Assembly (NCBI GenBank): GCA_965262245.1
Contig: OZ253507.1
Location: forward strand, 2,268,690 to 2,332,689
Length of the DNA stretch: 64,000 nucleotides
Origin: Candidatus Marinacidobacterales bacterium
Lineage (GTDB): Bacteria > Acidobacteriota > Vicinamibacteria > Marinacidobacterales > SMYC01
Reading direction: 5' to 3'
Positions 20,800 through 29,676 of the stretch are shown in pieces; position 1 is the stretch's first letter; each line of letters begins with the position of its first letter. The notes beneath the pieces were generated by a model. It saw only the letters and a program-made list of their open reading frames with translations, did no database searches and was not told where the DNA came from. The translations under genes and the position numbers were made by a program.

Positions 20800-22226
20800 A
20801 GGATATCCTGAATCTAGTTGAAATCGGTGAGTGACTCCCTTCAAGATCGTCGGTGTCAAAGCTGGCGATCAAAAAGAAAGGAGCCACCCGGTGAGAGCAG
20901 ATACGAAGAAGAGAAAGAATGCAACACAGATGCTGAGGGCGACGCAGGAGCAAGAGTGGTGGGCGGATCAAGTTGTGCATGTGATGCTGGAGGGCAAGCG
21001 AGCGCTGGACGCCGCGATGCTCGATGTCGGACGCCTGGTAGCTGAGACGCTCATGTACATGGAGCGCGAAGAGAGATCTGGGCCAGACTACCATCCTACG
21101 TCGTCCGGGCTTCGCAAATGGGCGAGTCAACGTGGGTCGATCTATGTCGGTGACCAGAAGCTCCCTGTCGAGCACCCTCGATTGCGGGGCCCGGAGGGTG
21201 AGGTCGGGCTGAGAACCTACGAGCAGCTCAAGAATCGCGGGGGCTTTTCGGAGGAACTCCTGTCGGAGGTGCTTCGGGGAATGTCTGCTCGCAAGTACGA
21301 AGAGACGGTGACGGCGGCAGGCAAGGCTTTCGGTGTGACGCCGAGCTCGGTGTCCCGCCATCTGGTCGAGGCGACGGCGAAGCAGCTGAAGCAGTTCCAG
21401 GAGCGCAGTCTCGAAGAGTTTCCGCTCTTCGCGATGTACCTAGACACGGTCCACCGCGGCGGTCAGGCGTTCGTGGTCGCGCTCGGCGTGGACCGTGAAG
21501 GGAAAAAGCTCCCCCTGGGCTTCTGGGAAGGGGCGACAGAGAACCACGAGATCTGCGAGGAATTGCTGGAAGAGTTGGAGCGACGGGGGTTAAAGCTCTC
21601 CAAACGGATCCTCTGGGTAACCGATGGTGGCGGGGGGATCATCAAGGCGCTCAAAGACCGATACGGTAAGAAGCTCATCCACCAGCGGTGTACTTTGCAC
21701 AAAGACCGCAACATCCAGCGCCACCTGCCCAAACGCTACCGCAAGCAGGCACACCACCTCTTCGCGACTGCCTTGGAGCAGAACAGCTACAAGGACGCGA
21801 AGAAGATGTTGCAGGAGTTCGAGCGCTGGCTTCGCGACATCAACGAGTCGGCGGCAGACTCACTCCTCGAGGCACTCGAGGAGGTGCTGATGCTCCACAA
21901 GTTGAAGGTCCCCGCTCTACTGCGCCAGAGCCTGCACTCGACGAATCCTATAGAGAGTATGTTCTCCATGGTTCGTAGTTGCGAGCGCAACATCAAACGC
22001 TACCGTAACAGCAAAATGCGCCAGCGATGGCTCGCCGCTGTGCTGCTGCACTGCGAACAACAGTTCAGACGAGTCAAGGGGCACGCATCCATCGACGTAG
22101 TGGTTGCGGCCATCGATGCGATCCAACGAGAGGACGAGATGCCTGAGGCCGCGTAAGGTCAGGGGCGTAGAGCTGGAAATGACCACGAGTCGCTTATGAT
22201 GGTTTCAACTAATTCCTTGACATCCT
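20800..22226 (+). mobile_element. IS256-family insertion sequence (~1.43 kb) with imperfect 25-bp IRs and a 9-10-bp target duplication
   Basis: IRL GGATATCCTGAATCTAGTTGAAATC (20801..20825); IRR reverse-complement GGATGTCAAGGAATTAGTTGAAACC (22201..22225). Flanking direct repeat CACCAAAATG at 20790..20799 and 22227..22236. Confidence 0.85.
20930..22156 (+). CDS. IS256-family (mutator-type) transposase
   Basis: Motifs FAMYLDTVHRGG, LWVTDGGGGIIKAL, QRCTLHKDRN, STNPIESMFSMVR. ~409 aa from ATG 20930; the ORF also has an upstream GTG at 20831. Confidence 0.85.
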   Translation: MLRATQEQEWWADQVVHVMLEGKRALDAAMLDVGRLVAETLMYMEREERSGPDYHPTSSGLRKWASQRGSIYVGDQKLPVEHPRLRGPEGEVGLRTYEQLKNRGGFSEELLSEVLRGMSARKYEETVTAAGKAFGVTPSSVSRHLVEATAKQLKQFQERSLEEFPLFAMYLDTVHRGGQAFVVALGVDREGKKLPLGFWEGATENHEICEELLEELERRGLKLSKRILWVTDGGGGIIKALKDRYGKKLIHQRCTLHKDRNIQRHLPKRYRKQAHHLFATALEQNSYKDAKKMLQEFERWLRDINESAADSLLEALEEVLMLHKLKVPALLRQSLHSTNPIESMFSMVRSCERNIKRYRNSKMRQRWLAAVLLHCEQQFRRVKGHASIDVVVAAIDAIQREDEMPEAA

Positions 22227-23620: not shown

Positions 23621-24922
23621 CTATACGGATCCCCCAAACGACCTCTCGAAGAGCGCTGTAATCGCCTGACGTCCTGACTCGGAGAGCTCCCGCGTCCCCG
23701 TTCCGGTGAAGCGAGTCTTTTGGATCGTCGGGGCGTCGACTTTCTCCCAGGTCGTAACACTCTCAGTCCACCGGTACCAGCTGTTCTTGGTCTGGTCGAA
23801 GACGTGAAGCCGCTTGTGGAAGTGGCGCGCAAGCTCGGCGCCCCAGCCGGTGCCGCCTTTGACGGTTTGATCCTCGACGATCTCACCGACGACGAAGACT
23901 TCGCCCGCCGTCGCGACCTGATGCCAGATGGTTTTCAGCAAGCGCTGGAACAGCTCGGTCTTTGGGAACGAACGATGAAGCTGCGCCTTGATGTAGGTTT
24001 CGCTGACGCTTCCCCGCTCGAGCTCGTCTTCGCTGAGCTCGACGATACCGCGTGTGCGCGCCGTGGCCCGGCCCGGATAGGAGTAATGAATCTCGTTCAT
24101 TCCCCATCTCTCCGCGGCCTCTCCGAACGCCGCCTCGCTTCCTTTGGCGCCTCCCGAGAGTAACGTGTACGAGGATGACGGGAGCTTGCCGAGAGCGCTC
24201 GACGCATCATCGCCAGCGATCCGCATCGTGTCCGTGTCGAGATGGAGGTGCGTGTCTTCGAGCTCTGTGCAGTCGTGGTCCTTGAGCAAGCGCACCGAAG
24301 CGTGGGTGCCTTCGGGCTCTAGAAAGATGGCGACGTCGATCACGTCCGCGTAAGCGTCGCAAGGCGGCAAGATGCTCGTCGGCTTTTCAGGCGTGCCCTC
24401 GCGGTGAGTTTGGGCGGTCATCCAAAGCTCGGCATCGAGCCTCTTTGCCGCGAGCTTGAAAGCTCCGAGCTCGGCCGCGCGCTCGACGACCGTGCCGCAT
24501 TCCCAATCGAAGCCGTCGATCAAGATGGCCTTGGGCGCGAAGCCGGCTTTGTCCGCGTAGAGGGAGAGCACGTCGTCGAGGCGCTCATGCGAGAACCCGT
24601 TATTGGCATAGGCCTGGATGATGCGGTTTGCGTTCACGAGCTGGCGCACTTGAGCGAGATTCTCGAACTCGGTGAGCTTTGCCAAGTCGTCGAACAGAGC
24701 GTCGTACCACGACTGTACATGATCGAGGTCTTGTCCGAGTGCTACATGGAGGACGGGACGCTCGCGCATCGCGTCATCGAGTCCAATTTGGACGAGGAAC
24801 GCAGTCTTGCCGACACCGGCGCGTGCCATCACGACGCCGAGCTTCCCCGCGCCCAAACCACCTTTGGTCGAGCTCTCCAGAATCCGGAGAGGGCTCTTTT
24901 CGTTGACTTGCTTTCGAAACAT
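23621..24922 (-). CDS. KaiC/RecA-superfamily ATPase fused to a C-terminal LOG/SLOG-like Rossmann domain
   Basis: N-terminal: Walker A VVMARAGVGKTAFLVQIG, Walker B AILIDGFD. C-terminal: LOG-family hallmarks LLSGGAKGSEAAFGEAAERWG (GGxxGxxxA...G), KGGTGWGAELARHFH (PGGxGTxEE-like) and HVFDQTKNSWYRW. The domain assignment is motif-level only. Confidence 0.5.
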   Translation of the reverse strand: MFRKQVNEKSPLRILESSTKGGLGAGKLGVVMARAGVGKTAFLVQIGLDDAMRERPVLHVALGQDLDHVQSWYDALFDDLAKLTEFENLAQVRQLVNANRIIQAYANNGFSHERLDDVLSLYADKAGFAPKAILIDGFDWECGTVVERAAELGAFKLAAKRLDAELWMTAQTHREGTPEKPTSILPPCDAYADVIDVAIFLEPEGTHASVRLLKDHDCTELEDTHLHLDTDTMRIAGDDASSALGKLPSSSYTLLSGGAKGSEAAFGEAAERWGMNEIHYSYPGRATARTRGIVELSEDELERGSVSETYIKAQLHRSFPKTELFQRLLKTIWHQVATAGEVFVVGEIVEDQTVKGGTGWGAELARHFHKRLHVFDQTKNSWYRWTESVTTWEKVDAPTIQKTRFTGTGTRELSESGRQAITALFERSFGGSV

Positions 24923-25041: not shown

Positions 25042-25559
25042 CTAGCGTGCCATCGCTTTTTCTTTTTCTTGCTTTGCCACCAGCTCTTCTTCGATGGCCC
25101 CGGGAACCGGCAAATAGCGTGAGAACTCCATGGTGAAATCGGCTTTGCCTTGCGTTGCGGAACGGAGCGTCGTGGCGTAGCCGAACATCTCGGCCAGCGG
25201 AACCTCGGATTCCGTGATGGTGGTGCCCCCATTCTCCTGCTGCCCGATGATCGCGCCGCGGCGCTGCATGAGCGTCGTCAAGACACCGCTCGCATGATCG
25301 GTGGGGGCTTCGACGACGACCCGCATGATGGGCTCGAGCACTTTTGGCTGGCTCCGGTCATAGGCTTCGCGCCACGCCCCGCGCGCCGCTTGCTGGAACG
25401 CGACGTCGGACGAGTCTACCGTGTGGTGGGCGCCATCGTTGATCACGACACGCGCGTTGACAACCGGTGCTCCGATCTTTCGGCCTTTCTCGAGCATCGA
25501 CTTGAAGCCTTTCTCCACCGCCGAGATGAACTGGCGCGGGATGACGCCGCCTTTGATAT
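25042..25559 (-). pseudogene. fusA: EF-G (fusA-like) C-terminal portion (domains IV-V), separated from the N-terminal portion by the IS1595 R-M element
   Basis: Reading from the TSD: IKGGVIPRQFISAVEKGFKSMLEKG...DGAHHTVDSSDVAFQQAARGAW...AEMFGYATTLRSATQGKADFTMEFSRYLPVP matches EF-G domains IV-V. It continues the frame broken at 28048. Confidence 0.85.
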
Positions 25560-25589
25560 GGGAATTATATATTTGACGCCACCAGCCTA

Positions 25590-26282
25590 CTAGAGACGTT
25601 CCTTCTTGAGGTACAGCCTACAGACCGAGGAAGGTGCCACGCGAAACTTGGTGCCGTGGTTTCTGAGCCCTGGGCTCCCTGGCTTGGCTTCCCTAGCATC
25701 GAAGTCAATCACGATCTCGCCTCGCAGAATCTCATTCACGAAGTCGGCCAGGTGAAAGGTCTCGTAGGCGTCGGCCTGACGGAAGCGCACCTTTTGTCCG
25801 TCCTTCTCCCCCTTGACCATGATGAGCCGTCGTAGTTTGGATCCCGCTACCGCCATCAACTCCTCATGGGACCAATACGGGATGAGCCCATTGCCTCGAA
25901 TCGGTCGGACAACGATCTGGCCTCCACTGTCTTCCACTCGGAAGCGATCGCTCTTGCCCTTGATCGTGTGCCGGAAACTCATTCTCCCCTTTGCGTCTTT
26001 CCAGCCGTGCTTGCGAACCATGTAGCGGAGGATGGTTGGTGGGCCAGTTGGCTCCTTGTGAAATAGCGTCAAGAGATTGGTTCTCCGTGTGAACCACTTC
26101 AACTCCCAGCCTACAGAGTCGGGAATATCCACAGAGCCCGTTGTGACGCCTAGCAAGCTCTCCAGGAACATCCCAGGGGCACCAGTTCCTCCGAACTTCT
26201 CCGGCAGGTCATACCAGCCAGCGGAGATAACCCCACGTAACCGCTCAAATAGTTCGCGCTTTGTGCGCGGCGGGGAAGTCAC
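25590..26282 (-). CDS. MutH/Sau3AI-family Type II restriction endonuclease (predicted GATC-type)
   Basis: Matches to E. coli MutH: GAPGMFLESLLGVTTGSVDIPDSVGWELKW (MutH [32 protein letters not shown]), KLRRLIMVKGE, and C-terminal RLYLKKERL (MutH GFYLKKNF). GTG start overlaps the MTase stop (GTGA). Confidence 0.7.
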   Translation of the reverse strand: MTSPPRTKRELFERLRGVISAGWYDLPEKFGGTGAPGMFLESLLGVTTGSVDIPDSVGWELKWFTRRTNLLTLFHKEPTGPPTILRYMVRKHGWKDAKGRMSFRHTIKGKSDRFRVEDSGGQIVVRPIRGNGLIPYWSHEELMAVAGSKLRRLIMVKGEKDGQKVRFRQADAYETFHLADFVNEILRGEIVIDFDAREAKPGSPGLRNHGTKFRVAPSSVCRLYLKKERL

Positions 26283-27067
26283 TGCACAATCCGACGAACG
26301 GCGGAGAGCCGTTCTCTGGCCAGCTTGCAGTATTCCTCGGAGATATCGAACCCGATCCACTTCCGTTTCTCTGCCTCGGCCGCAATCGCCGTAGATCCGG
26401 AGCCCATGAACGGGTCAAGAACGATCTTGCCTTTCGTCGATGCGATACAGCGTTGGGCCAATTCAATGGGGAAGGGTGCTGGGTGTGGGTTGTTGTTCTC
26501 TTGTGGAATGCTCCAGATGTCTCCGGCGGCGTTCGCCTTTGGCACCAGCTTAAAATCTGGTTTGGCGATTAGGTAGATAACCTCGTAGGTAGGCAGGAAA
26601 TAGCCTGGATTGAAATTGATACCTCCCTTGCGTTGCCAAATGACGATCTGCCGGACGGGGAAGCCTTCCATGATATCAGCCCTGTCTTGGAGTAGCCCGC
26701 CCTGGATGCGCCACTTGTGGTTGTAGAAAATGGCTCCATCTTTGCGCAGCACGCGCATCATCGCCTTCAAGCACTTCTTCTGCCACTCGACATAATCATC
26801 ATGCGGCATGGCGTCACCGTTGGAAGCGTAGCCCTTGATCAACGCGGCTTTTGGCCACTTCCCACCGCTTCCGTTTTTGAGACCGTTCCCCGTGCTGTTC
26901 TTGATGTTGTAGGGCGGACTGGTGACGATCGCATCTACCGATAACGCGGGCAGTTTGGCCATGAGTTTGAGGCAATCGCCAGGATGCACCTTGTCGAGCC
27001 ACGGCTCCATCAAGTGCGGAGCAGTGCGCGTGACGGCCTCAGTTATGAGCTGGCTAAAGGTTGTCAT
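26279..27067 (-). CDS. DNA methyltransferase, N6-adenine/N4-cytosine type (beta class; motif IV SPPY before motif I FxGxG)
   Basis: DAIVTSPPY (motif IV), IVLDPFMGSGSTAIAAE (motif I), N4/N6 methylase fold. ATG 27065..27067 overlaps the transposase TGA (ATGA). Confidence 0.85.
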   Translation of the reverse strand: MTTFSQLITEAVTRTAPHLMEPWLDKVHPGDCLKLMAKLPALSVDAIVTSPPYNIKNSTGNGLKNGSGGKWPKAALIKGYASNGDAMPHDDYVEWQKKCLKAMMRVLRKDGAIFYNHKWRIQGGLLQDRADIMEGFPVRQIVIWQRKGGINFNPGYFLPTYEVIYLIAKPDFKLVPKANAAGDIWSIPQENNNPHPAPFPIELAQRCIASTKGKIVLDPFMGSGSTAIAAEAEKRKWIGFDISEEYCKLARERLSAVRRIVQ

Positions 27068-27987
27068 CGAATCAGATCCGAATAGGTCAGACGAAGGCCG
27101 GACGATGCGCCTAGCAAGGTGTCTACTCTTTCGCCGCCCTTGATCTTCCCAAGGTTGAATCGCGCCGAGAATTCGGCGAGATAACGGTGCAGGTGTTTCC
27201 AAGTGAAGTGGTGAAAGGTGCCGATGTAGCCGCGTTTCAGTAGCGCCCAGAAGGATTCTATCCCGTTAGTATGCGCTTGCCCGCGCACGTACTCGCCCAC
27301 AGAGTGGCGGACGCTCTCATGGGAGTAGAGGCGATCTAGACCGAGATAAGCGCTGTGATCGTCCGTGTAGAGAACGGAACCAGCCGCGACATTGGATTGG
27401 ACAAAACCATGAAGCACCATCTGGCTCGTGTTGGGGATGGCTTTTACCTTCACCTTCCCCGCGCGCGAGCGGGCACCGGCAACTGGCTGTTTACCTACGG
27501 GGCCGCGACCCTTGATCTTCTGGCGACGCTTATCGGCGTGCATGTTCCGCGCCTTGCCGCCAATGAACGTCTCATCGACTTCGACGATCCCATCAAACGG
27601 TCCTCCGTACGAGTCCATTTGATCTAGGACTTCTCGGAGCCGACCCAGCATAAACCACGCCGTCTTTTGCGTTACGCCTATCTCTCGGGCCAATTGAGTA
27701 GACGGGATACCCTTTCTGTTGGAAGTGATCAACCATGCCGCGACAAACCATTTACGGAGCGGGAGACGGCTTTCCTCGAAGATCGTCCCCTTTCGGACTG
27801 AGAACTCCTGGCGACAATCGGCGCACTTGTAACCGCCTCGACGGACGTTGTAGAACTTGCGCGTGGAAACGCACCAAGGGCAAACGATACCTTTGGGCCA
27901 GCGCTGGCGCTCCAAGTGCTCGATGCAGCTTTTCTCGGTTGAGAAGGCTTCGCGTAGTGCGTATAGGCTGTCGTAGGTAAGTTCCAT
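27064..27987 (-). CDS. IS1595-family transposase (ISXO2-like, N-terminal zinc ribbon + DDE)
   Basis: 307 aa: zinc ribbon CPWC...CADC, DDE core EVDETFIGG...VLYTDDHSAYLGL...HSVGEYVRGQAHTNGIESFWALLKR. The start is 60 bp inside the right IR. Confidence 0.9.
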   Translation of the reverse strand: MELTYDSLYALREAFSTEKSCIEHLERQRWPKGIVCPWCVSTRKFYNVRRGGYKCADCRQEFSVRKGTIFEESRLPLRKWFVAAWLITSNRKGIPSTQLAREIGVTQKTAWFMLGRLREVLDQMDSYGGPFDGIVEVDETFIGGKARNMHADKRRQKIKGRGPVGKQPVAGARSRAGKVKVKAIPNTSQMVLHGFVQSNVAAGSVLYTDDHSAYLGLDRLYSHESVRHSVGEYVRGQAHTNGIESFWALLKRGYIGTFHHFTWKHLHRYLAEFSARFNLGKIKGGERVDTLLGASSGLRLTYSDLIR

Positions 27988-28047
27988 GCCCTATCTCCTA
28001 CCACCACTATAGCCTGTTTAGCTGGTGGCGTCAAATATATAATTCCC

Positions 28048-29676
28048 TTTGATATTGTCGACGAACTCGAAGTCACTATCGGTGTTCGGCTCCAGATAGC
28101 CGGCCACGCGACCATATTGGCCCGAACCACCGGTTTGCTTCTTGTGGACGTAGTCGAAAAAGACTTGTTTGCCGAGGGTCTCCCGATACGCGACCTGAGG
28201 CGGCGACACTTCGACTTCGACATTGTATTCGCGCTTCATCCGCTCGATATAGACCTCGAGCTGAAGCTCGCCCATGCCGTGGATGACGGTCTCTCCCGAT
28301 TCGGGATCCGCGCCCGCTTTGAAGCTCGGGTCTCTTTCGTAAACCGCTGCAGAGCCTTCGTCATGTTGACTTGCGATTTGTTGTCGACGGGCTTGACGGA
28401 CAGCGAGATCACCGGCTCAGGAACGTGGATCGACGTCATCGCTAATTTGCGCTTGCCGTCGGTGAAGGTATCGCCGGAGCTGCAATCGAGACCGAAGATC
28501 GCGGCTATATCGCCGGGGCCGGCGTCTTCGATCTCCTCCATCTCGTCAGCGTGCATTCTAACGAGCCGGCCGACTTTTGTCTGCTTCCCCGTGCGCGTAT
28601 TCGTGACGAACAAGTCACGGTCGAGATACCCTTGATAGACGCGCACATAAGTGAGCTGTCCGTAGGCGGCCGTCTTCGAGCTTGAAAGCGAGCGCGACGA
28701 TTCCTTTGTCCGGACTCGGATCGAGCGGGATTCTAGCTTCGTCCTTGCTCGTGAAGTCGATGGCCTCGTTCTTGATGTCGGGAGGGCTCGGGAGGTATTG
28801 GACCACGGCGTCCAGAAGAGGCTGGACGCCTTTGTTCTTGTAGGCCGAGCCGACGAGCACCGGGGTCATTTGGAGTGCGAGGGTCCCTTCGCGCACGGCC
28901 CGATAGATCTGCTCTTCGGTGACTTGCTCTTCGAGGATCGCTTCCATGAGCTCATCGGAGAACATCGACACCGCATCGAGCATCTCTTCGCGAAACGCCG
29001 AGGCTTTCTCCTCGAGCTCGGTGGGGATCGCTTTCTCGACGACCCTCTCCCCGTTCTCGCCCTCGAAGAAGAGAGCTTTCATGCGGATGAGGTCCACGAC
29101 GCCTTTGAAAGCGTCCTCGAGGCCGATGGGGATTTGGAGCAGTACAGGGTTGTGGCCGAGCTTCTCGCGGAGTTGATCGCGCACGCGCACCGGGTCCGTG
29201 CCCACGCGATCGCACTTGTTGACGAAGGCGATGCGCGGCACGTGGTAGCGGTTCATCTGCCGGTCCACCGTATAGGACTGGCTCTGAACGCCCGCGACCG
29301 AGCGCAGGACGAGCACGGCGCCGTCGAGGACGGCGAGGCTCCGCTCCACCTCGATCGTGAAATCGACGTGCCCTGGAGTGTCGATGATGTTCACGTGATG
29401 GCCGAGCCAGCTGCAATGGGTCGCGGCGCTCGCGATGGTGATGCCGCGCTCGCGCTCGCGCTCCATCGAGTCCATCTTCGCACCGACGCCGTCTTTGCCT
29501 TTGACGTCGTGAATGGCGTGAACGCGGTCCGTGTAAAAGAGAATCCGCTCGGTCAGCGTTGTCTTGCCGCTGTCTATGTGAGCGGAAATCCCGATATTTC
29601 GGATGGTGTTCAGATCTTTGATCACCTTCTTACCTCGTTTGAAACGGGTGACAGGCCAGACCTCAACAACACGCAC
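28048..29676 (-). pseudogene. fusA: EF-G (fusA-like) N-terminal portion (G domain, domains II-III, start of IV), with two additional internal frameshifts
   Basis: G-domain motifs [27 protein letters not shown]. Domain [10 protein letters not shown]...AGDIAAIFGL in a second frame (shift at the C-run about 28663..28671). FEFVDNIK in a third frame ends at the TSD. ORFs 28615..29676, 28236..28646 and 28018..28275. Confidence 0.85.

Follow-up and report, generated by a model that had tools for sequence, protein, structure and literature searches.

A small IS1595-family transposon whose sole cargo is probably a Type IIP restriction-modification pair of the MvaI/BcnI type

MutH is a nickase that is activated by MutL and has the orphan methylase Dam as its partner, and the methylase that partners Sau3AI makes 5-methylcytosine (m5C). 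The restriction endonucleases MvaI and BcnI share the catalytic lobe of MutH, yet they read CC^WGG and CC^SGG as opposed to GATC (PMC1874612, PMC5766183). Enzymes of their family act as monomers and nick the two strands one after the other (PMC1874612, PMC3089477, PMC3203586), and the product of M.MvaI is Cm4CWGG (PMC3001055), where m4C denotes N4-methylcytosine. The spread of Type II restriction-modification (RM) systems between genomes is still mostly inferred from context (PMC2853133); in the same paper, Furuta et al. (2010) cite Siguier 2009 for RM or methylase genes that are linked to insertion sequences (ISs). Here we analyze a stretch of 64,000 nucleotides (the window, to which all positions refer) from contig OZ253507.1 of a Candidatus Marinacidobacterales bacterium. 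Positions 25560-28047 are probably a transposon of the IS1595 family, 2488 bp long, that carries a Type IIP RM pair as its sole cargo: a restriction endonuclease, R, and a DNA methyltransferase, M.

The genes for the transposase, M and R are co-oriented on the minus strand and all lie inside 25560-28047. The transposase gene (27064-27987, 307 amino acids) encodes an IS1595-type DDE enzyme with an N-terminal zinc ribbon, as seen from its matches to Pfam DDE_Tnp_IS1595 (E = 1.9e-42) and Zn_ribbon_IS1595 (1.6e-10) and to the NCBIfam model transpos_IS1595 (1.1e-57, 195 bits at a cut-off of 75). It is followed by M (26279-27067, 262 amino acids), a beta-class DNA amino-methyltransferase that probably acts on N4 of cytosine, and by R (25590-26282, 230 amino acids), an endonuclease of the MvaI/BcnI family with predicted catalytic residues E41, D55, E60 and K62. 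The ATG start of M overlaps the TGA stop of the transposase (ATGA), and the GTG start of R in turn overlaps the TGA stop of M (GTGA). Inverted repeats of 27 bp and an 8-bp duplication, all read from the sequence, enclose the whole transposase-M-R unit. The repeat at the transposase end (GGGAATTATATATTTGACGCCACCAGC, 28021-28047, minus strand) holds a TTGAC hexamer that resembles a -35 element, and the identical 27 bases are present on the plus strand at the endonuclease end (25560-25586). The two copies of the target-site duplication lie at 28048-28055 (ATATCAAA on the minus strand) and 25552-25559.

The insertion interrupts an EF-G-like gene within domain IV. The 5' part of this gene (28056-29676, minus strand) covers the GTPase domain through domain IV (Pfam GTP_EFTU, 3.4e-61), the 3' part (25042-25551, minus strand) covers the end of domain IV and the C-terminal domain (EFG_IV, 1e-12; EFG_C, 4e-26), and joining of the flanks restores ...VDNIKGGVIPRQFISAVEKG... 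across the insertion point. In another assembly a 96%-identical copy of the element is held in a different context, with a duplication of its own (CAAAGAAG; locus L001). Given the repeats, the target duplications and this second insertion site, the transposase-M-R unit has demonstrably transposed. The first-pass annotation of the window covered 25590-27067, which is exactly M plus R. Both open reading frames (ORFs) proved real, with 230 and 262 amino acids on the minus strand and the motifs that had been quoted for them, and its proposal that the pair is IS cargo is borne out by the repeats, the duplication, the second site and the related elements described below.

When the element is compared with its copy in the other assembly (L001:4122-6612), R differs at 1 of 693 nucleotides and M at 17 of 789, and most of the 4% divergence is located in the transposase part. 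Such mosaic divergence suggests recombination between related elements.

A scan for relatives, based on one genome per species, yielded 176 relatives of the nuclease, and 82 loci were examined (80 that were kept, plus L001 and L002). M lies directly upstream of R in most of these loci, and 60 of the 82 pass a strict criterion (R and M both near-full-length, with M upstream of R and within 400 bp of it); the loci that fail are mostly truncated, frameshifted or located at contig ends. An IS1595 transposase is present directly upstream of M in 27 of the 60 strict loci. The repeat core GGGAMTTATATACTTGACRCCAC occurs at both ends in 25 of these 27, enclosing 2.45-2.85 kb, and 20 of the 25 repeat-bounded elements are flanked by 8-bp duplications that are perfect and AT-rich. 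The inverted repeats are absent from all 33 loci without a transposase, and several further loci (L030, L031, L044, L052, L057, L064 and L080) retain the transposase gene as fragments only. The pairwise protein distances of transposase, M and R co-vary (Mantel r of 0.53-0.60 over 24 elements, with 0 of 2000 permutations as high); across elements these distances are about 40% for the transposase and for R, against about 30% for M.

The hosts belong to the Chloroflexota, Acidobacteriota, Poribacteria, Nitrospirota, Latescibacterota, Verrucomicrobiota, Omnitrophota, Bacteroidota and Proteobacteria, and the nearest relative (95%) is found in a metagenome-assembled genome (MAG) of Candidatus Marinacidobacterales. 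Judged by the record titles of L003-L082, the relatives are concentrated in MAGs of sponge or marine symbionts (Poribacteria, Entotheonella, Caldilineaceae, Dehalococcoidia, Candidatus Marinacidobacterales and Porisulfidus). Some genomes hold multiple copies: three in OY282375.1, two in OY762063.1 and two in a Candidatus Moanabacter MAG (CBDDCD01). It might be argued that the unit is an autonomous transposon of an IS1595 lineage with a complete m4C RM system as its only cargo, kept through long divergence and inserted independently in multiple phyla, notably in sponge and marine symbionts, and that its nuclease, with a His/Asp/Lys combination discussed below, may have a novel mode of centre-base reading (CC^NGG or strand-biased). 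In this full form the proposal is tentative, and we hold it with less than even confidence. A search of the searchable literature for IS1595 elements with RM cargo gave no description of this lineage, the single hit being that PMC2853133 cites Siguier 2009.

Judged by its sequence, R is an intact member of the MvaI/BcnI family in which all four catalytic residues are present. A Pfam search gave PF15515 (MvaI/BcnI restriction endonuclease family) as the sole match (E = 6.7e-24, 85.6 bits at a cut-off of 25, covering profile positions 3-227 of 227). A single-sequence search of the PDB returned R.MvaI (8e-11) and R.BcnI (1e-7) with noise beyond, and a profile built from 54 sequences retrieved the same two enzymes (2.9e-21 for MvaI, 2.3e-10 for BcnI) and nothing else at E-values up to 10. 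The AlphaFold2 model of R is of high quality (predicted local distance difference test, pLDDT, of 92; predicted template-modelling score, pTM, of 0.87) and has a two-lobed, one-domain fold like the solved MvaI and BcnI structures. Its best Foldseek matches in the PDB are the DNA complexes of MvaI (3e-16, template-modelling score, TM, of 0.81) and BcnI (5e-13, TM 0.78). The catalytic set E41...D55-x4-E60-x-K62 aligns to the BcnI residues and to E36, D50, E55 and K57 of MvaI, and is invariant in 54 members of the clade.

The 230-residue protein that starts at the overlapping GTG matches the length of its homologues (490 in the databases). A longer version starting at GTG 26360 was rejected in favour of this start, given the lengths of the homologues and their N-terminal conservation. 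A public annotation (P0001, 193 amino acids, starting at Met38) is less likely, as it drops a conserved N-terminal helix: the first 37 residues of R are conserved in homologues and form a confident helix in the AlphaFold2 model. The homologues of R and M carry general names (hypothetical, MvaI/BcnI family endonuclease, site-specific DNA-methyltransferase, modification methylase), none of which states a recognition sequence; the name of one homologue, P0219 (a JGI entry), adds '(adenine-specific)'. In a plasmid database, relatives were found at 24-31% identity only and with generic annotation.

R carries the motif GAPGMFLESLLGVTTGSVDIPDSVGWELK and has RLYLKKERL as its C-terminus. From these features the first-pass annotation had derived a MutH/Sau3AI-like enzyme that cuts GATC, with M modifying the same site (as N6-methyladenine, m6A, or as m4C). 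Part of this stands. In hhalign, the profile of 54 homologues of R aligns to residues 8-81 of E. coli MutH (100% identical to PDB 2AZO) at an E-value of 1.2e-3 and a probability of 19%, the 62 aligned columns being 34% identical, and the structural check for a MutH fold indeed finds this fold shared by R, with MvaI and BcnI as the nearest structures. However, the hhalign alignment extends over the N-terminal catalytic block only and leaves the recognition lobe unaligned, and the spacing in R is D-x4-E-x-K as in MvaI, not D70-x6-E77-x-K79 as in MutH. Furthermore, no match to the MutH family (PF02976) was obtained in Pfam, neither MutH nor Sau3AI was recovered by sequence or profile searches of the PDB at E-values up to 10, and Foldseek places MutH at an E-value of 0.29 (TM 0.27). 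R is also a single domain, against two for Sau3AI (PMC5766183), and it keeps the residues with which MvaI reads the outer C:G pairs. Since MvaI and BcnI themselves combine the MutH fold with unrelated sites (PMC1874612), and given that the features of M point to m4C, specificity for GATC, at odds with all the family-level tests, is highly improbable, the C-terminal YLKK notwithstanding. The 64-kb window contains 434 GATC sites, which is near the Markov expectation and speaks neither for nor against GATC as the site.

M shows the motif order of the beta class, because motif IV (SPPY, residue 50) precedes motif I (FMGSG, residue 220). It matches Pfam N6_N4_Mtase (PF01555) with an E-value of 6.3e-41 and has at least 7998 homologues in the databases. 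Its best solved relative is the rotifer enzyme N4CMT (PDB 8S9N; E = 1.4e-35 over residues 29-257), which carries SPPY too and whose 4mC product has been demonstrated biochemically (PMC10406627). The first-pass annotation was thus right in seeing a beta-class amino-methyltransferase and not an m5C enzyme. Given the SPPY motif and the near-full-length match to N4CMT, the product of M is probably N4-methylcytosine, which agrees with the MvaI system. A longer start for M (TTG 27202) was rejected in favour of the ATG that overlaps the transposase stop, on homologue lengths and N-terminal conservation.

A rival explanation is that M is an N6-adenine enzyme, or that the site of the pair is unrelated to CCNGG as the family would not be predictive. 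PF01555 does include both N6-adenine and N4-cytosine enzymes, and NCBIfam models of adenine methylases (e.g. CcrM) match M, though only below threshold; the link from SPPY to m4C is moreover statistical only. Nonetheless, M has SPPY and not DPPY, and the solved N6-adenine enzymes of the beta class (CcrM, DpnA, MboIIA, RsrI) score far below the proven N4-cytosine enzyme N4CMT, which is the best full-length match. For most of these adenine enzymes the best stretch on M is the C-terminal motif I region, with a marginal N-terminal match for M.RsrI. With regard to the site, the centre readers and one outer-pair reader of R differ from both solved enzymes, but five outer-pair readers of MvaI are kept and both solved family members read CCNGG-type sites. 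Taken together, we grant this explanation a small chance and prefer the assignment of M as an N4-cytosine methylase.

Codon differences with the 95%-identical copy in locus L003 are mostly synonymous (40 synonymous against 10 non-synonymous for R, and 31 against 6 for M), so that both genes are under purifying selection. Because of this selection, the Pfam E-values and the many homologues, R and M are not chance frames.

To predict the recognition site, the DNA contacts of MvaI (PMC1874612) and BcnI (PMC3089477) were mapped onto the alignment of R. Of the residues with which MvaI reads the outer C:G pairs, five are kept (Thr68 as T72, Thr102 as T106, Asp207 as D193, His225 as H209 and Arg230 as R214); at the position of His223, R has Arg207, likewise able to serve as a hydrogen-bond donor to guanine. 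The positions predicted to read the centre base are His75, Asp195 and Lys212 in R, where MvaI has T, R and A and BcnI has H, C and H. Thus His77 of BcnI is kept as His75, Arg209 of MvaI is replaced by Asp195, and His219 of BcnI (Ala228 in MvaI) is replaced by Lys212, a lysine that is invariant in the clade. R lacks the two-residue insertion with the minor-groove Asp32 of BcnI and, like MvaI, has a Thr there. The query, MvaI and BcnI were aligned with full-length representatives of the wider family, 88 in number; of these 91 sequences, 69 have the His/Asp/Lys combination, which therefore marks a large third subfamily.

The best prediction from these contacts is that R targets a CC(N)GG-type pentanucleotide and cuts it after the second C. 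As a rough ranking, CCWGG would be the leading single candidate though held with less than even confidence, something else altogether would follow, then CCNGG, and CCSGG would come last. We lean towards CCWGG because a donor-only Lys212 and a switchable His would fit A:T in both orientations and C:G in one only. Several points weigh against so specific a prediction. The three centre-reading positions are unlike those of both solved enzymes, so specificity could differ further, and the change of His223 to Arg207 together with the loss of Arg209 (which contacts G+1 in MvaI) allows for a changed outer pair. In addition, some close relative may already have been characterised and may read another site; a literature search for such a relative, or for a methylome, gave generic mentions only, apart from one marine MAG with a CCSGG motif (PMC8919816).

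The lysine at position 212 also bears on whether R could be a strand-specific or methylation-directed nickase, for instance one that cuts only CC^CGG since Lys212 solely donates a hydrogen bond; a methyl-directed nickase had likewise been raised in the first-pass annotation. Monomers of this family nick the strands in turn (PMC3089477, PMC3203586), replacement of His219 in BcnI by Gln or Asn gives a strand-specific nickase (PMC3089477), and it is at this very position that the clade has its invariant Lys. A methyl-dependent nicking side activity has moreover been reported for MvaI (PMC3001055). Classical restriction, however, fits better with the tight and widely conserved coupling of R to a cognate methylase (the genes overlap and M is upstream of R in 60 of 82 loci), and a nuclease for methylated sites would be lethal beside a methylase of its own. 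R and M are both under purifying selection, nothing points to an activator of the MutL type, and with W as the centre base Lys212 and His75 could, as we infer, satisfy both orientations. A nickase is therefore unlikely, and we continue with R as a restriction enzyme for a CC(N)GG-type site.

Site counts were considered as a further clue to specificity. The element in the window has no CCSGG sites (about 6.6 expected from the rate in the flanks), 9 CCWGG sites and 20 GATC sites. Set against a meaning for this gap is the finding that 58 related units from L001-L082 (M-R or transposase-M-R) are not depleted (observed/expected ratio, O/E, of 0.94 for CCSGG and 0.81 for CCWGG, for units that are homologous and counts that are hence not independent) and that their host flanks show similar ratios (0.98 and 0.94, respectively). 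Site avoidance was therefore rejected as a clue. Several 6-bp palindromes appear strongly depleted inside the 58 units and not in the flanks (O/E of 0.11 for TCCGGA, 0.16 for GCATGC, 0.20 for CCATGG and 0.29 for CGATCG). This could reflect a mobile element that avoids other restriction systems, with a statistic that, the units being homologous, is not independent.

The proposed mode of action follows what is known of the family (PMC1874612, PMC3089477, PMC3203586). R would act as a monomer, using a single active site, on an unmethylated pseudo-palindromic 5-bp site that it binds asymmetrically. It would nick one strand after the second C, rebind the other way round and then nick the second strand, leaving 5' overhangs of 1 nt. 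M would shield the CC(N)GG sites of the host by placing N4-methylcytosine in R's own site. The transposase would supply mobility, and the RM pair may either give the host of the element a benefit (defence) or make the element hard to lose (addiction).

A promoter-like site may drive the transposase, M and R together. It is located partly in the left inverted repeat (minus strand, 28034-28006) and combines the conserved TTGAC with a TATAGT 17 nt downstream; this sigma-70-like match adjoins the ATG of the transposase on the upstream side. The same consensus scan gave no comparable match upstream of M or R. M would be translated before R because one upstream promoter would serve all three genes. 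Against this stands the frequency of such consensus matches, on which the single-promoter operon rests: they occur here no more often than in shuffled sequence (2 found for 1.4 expected).

As for the surroundings of the element, the EF-G-like gene upstream of the insertion is spread over three overlapping frames (ORFs 28615-29676, 28236-28646 and 28018-28275, minus strand), and the same frame split is also present in locus L002. The broken gene is either a decaying pseudogene (perhaps of a dispensable EF-G paralogue) or the result of an indel error common to the assemblies. Past the endonuclease end, at a distance of about 3.4 kb from the element, there is a second, unrelated transposase of the IS256/Mutator family (20831-22156, plus strand, 441 amino acids, Pfam 4e-33), in a neighbourhood that is rich in mobile DNA. 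In between, an ORF of 433 amino acids (23621-24922, minus strand) has weak N-terminal similarity to KaiC/AAA_25 ATPases and a C-terminal half without a domain match.

Overall, the RM pair is ordinary-looking and new within known families; what is unusual is that a small IS1595-type transposon, which has jumped into many bacterial genomes, carries this pair and no other cargo. The locus illustrates that similarity to the MutH fold is no predictor of GATC, the pair being an MvaI/BcnI-family system that probably reads CC(N)GG and marks it with m4C. The mobile RM unit is explicit here: one transposase, one M and one R inside conserved inverted repeats. With more than 20 independent insertions that have intact 8-bp duplications, RM transposition becomes directly testable. 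If the proposal is true, the element offers a clean natural example of the movement of a Type II RM system, and of an IS that may stabilise itself through post-segregational killing. The His/Asp/Lys subfamily is the dominant one among MvaI/BcnI enzymes and is without a solved structure. Most environmental relatives belong to it, and it could yield a new specificity or natural nickases; strand-specific nicking enzymes have already been engineered from the MvaI/BcnI family (PMC3089477).

Compared with known systems, one of the closest to the pair is R.MvaI/M.MvaI (CC^WGG; Cm4CWGG; PDB 2OA9 and 2OAA). R shares its Pfam family, the two-lobed fold, the E..D-x4-E-x-K residues, the Thr in the minor-groove loop and five outer C:G readers (with Arg207 for His223), and in both cases the partner is an m4C methylase (a probable one for R). 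The two endonucleases are nonetheless only about 20% identical, and they differ where the centre base is read: Thr71 and Ala228 of MvaI correspond to His75 and Lys212, and Asp195 stands in place of the Arg209 that reads the centre T and G+1. With R.BcnI (CC^SGG; PDB 2ODH and 2ODI) R has in common the fold, the catalytic residues, His77 (His75 in R) and a C-terminal LY...ERL, whereas the two-histidine switch for the centre base is not reproduced, as His219 is Lys212 and the Asp32 insertion is absent. The likeness to MutH and Sau3AI is that of a monomeric PD-(D/E)XK catalytic lobe of the MutH type (G..G..LE..LG...GS....D..G.ELK) and a C-terminal YLKK, without family-level similarity, with another Asp-Glu spacing and with an unrelated recognition lobe; the single domain of 230 amino acids likewise sets R apart from Sau3AI.

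M resembles N4CMT of Adineta vaga (8S9N) and the bacterial N4-cytosine enzymes of the beta class in its SPPY motif, motif order and whole-length similarity (PMC10406627). N4CMT differs by its CpG preference, its acquisition by a eukaryote and its extra domains, and its target is uninformative on that of M. The element as a whole is like other ISs of the IS1595 family in having a zinc-ribbon DDE transposase, short inverted repeats and 8-bp target duplications. Some members of this family reportedly carry passenger genes, as Siguier et al. (2009) are said to have described. The present element is unlike such passenger-gene ISs in that its cargo is a complete, translationally coupled RM pair, in an architecture that is found in at least 25 elements and in many phyla.

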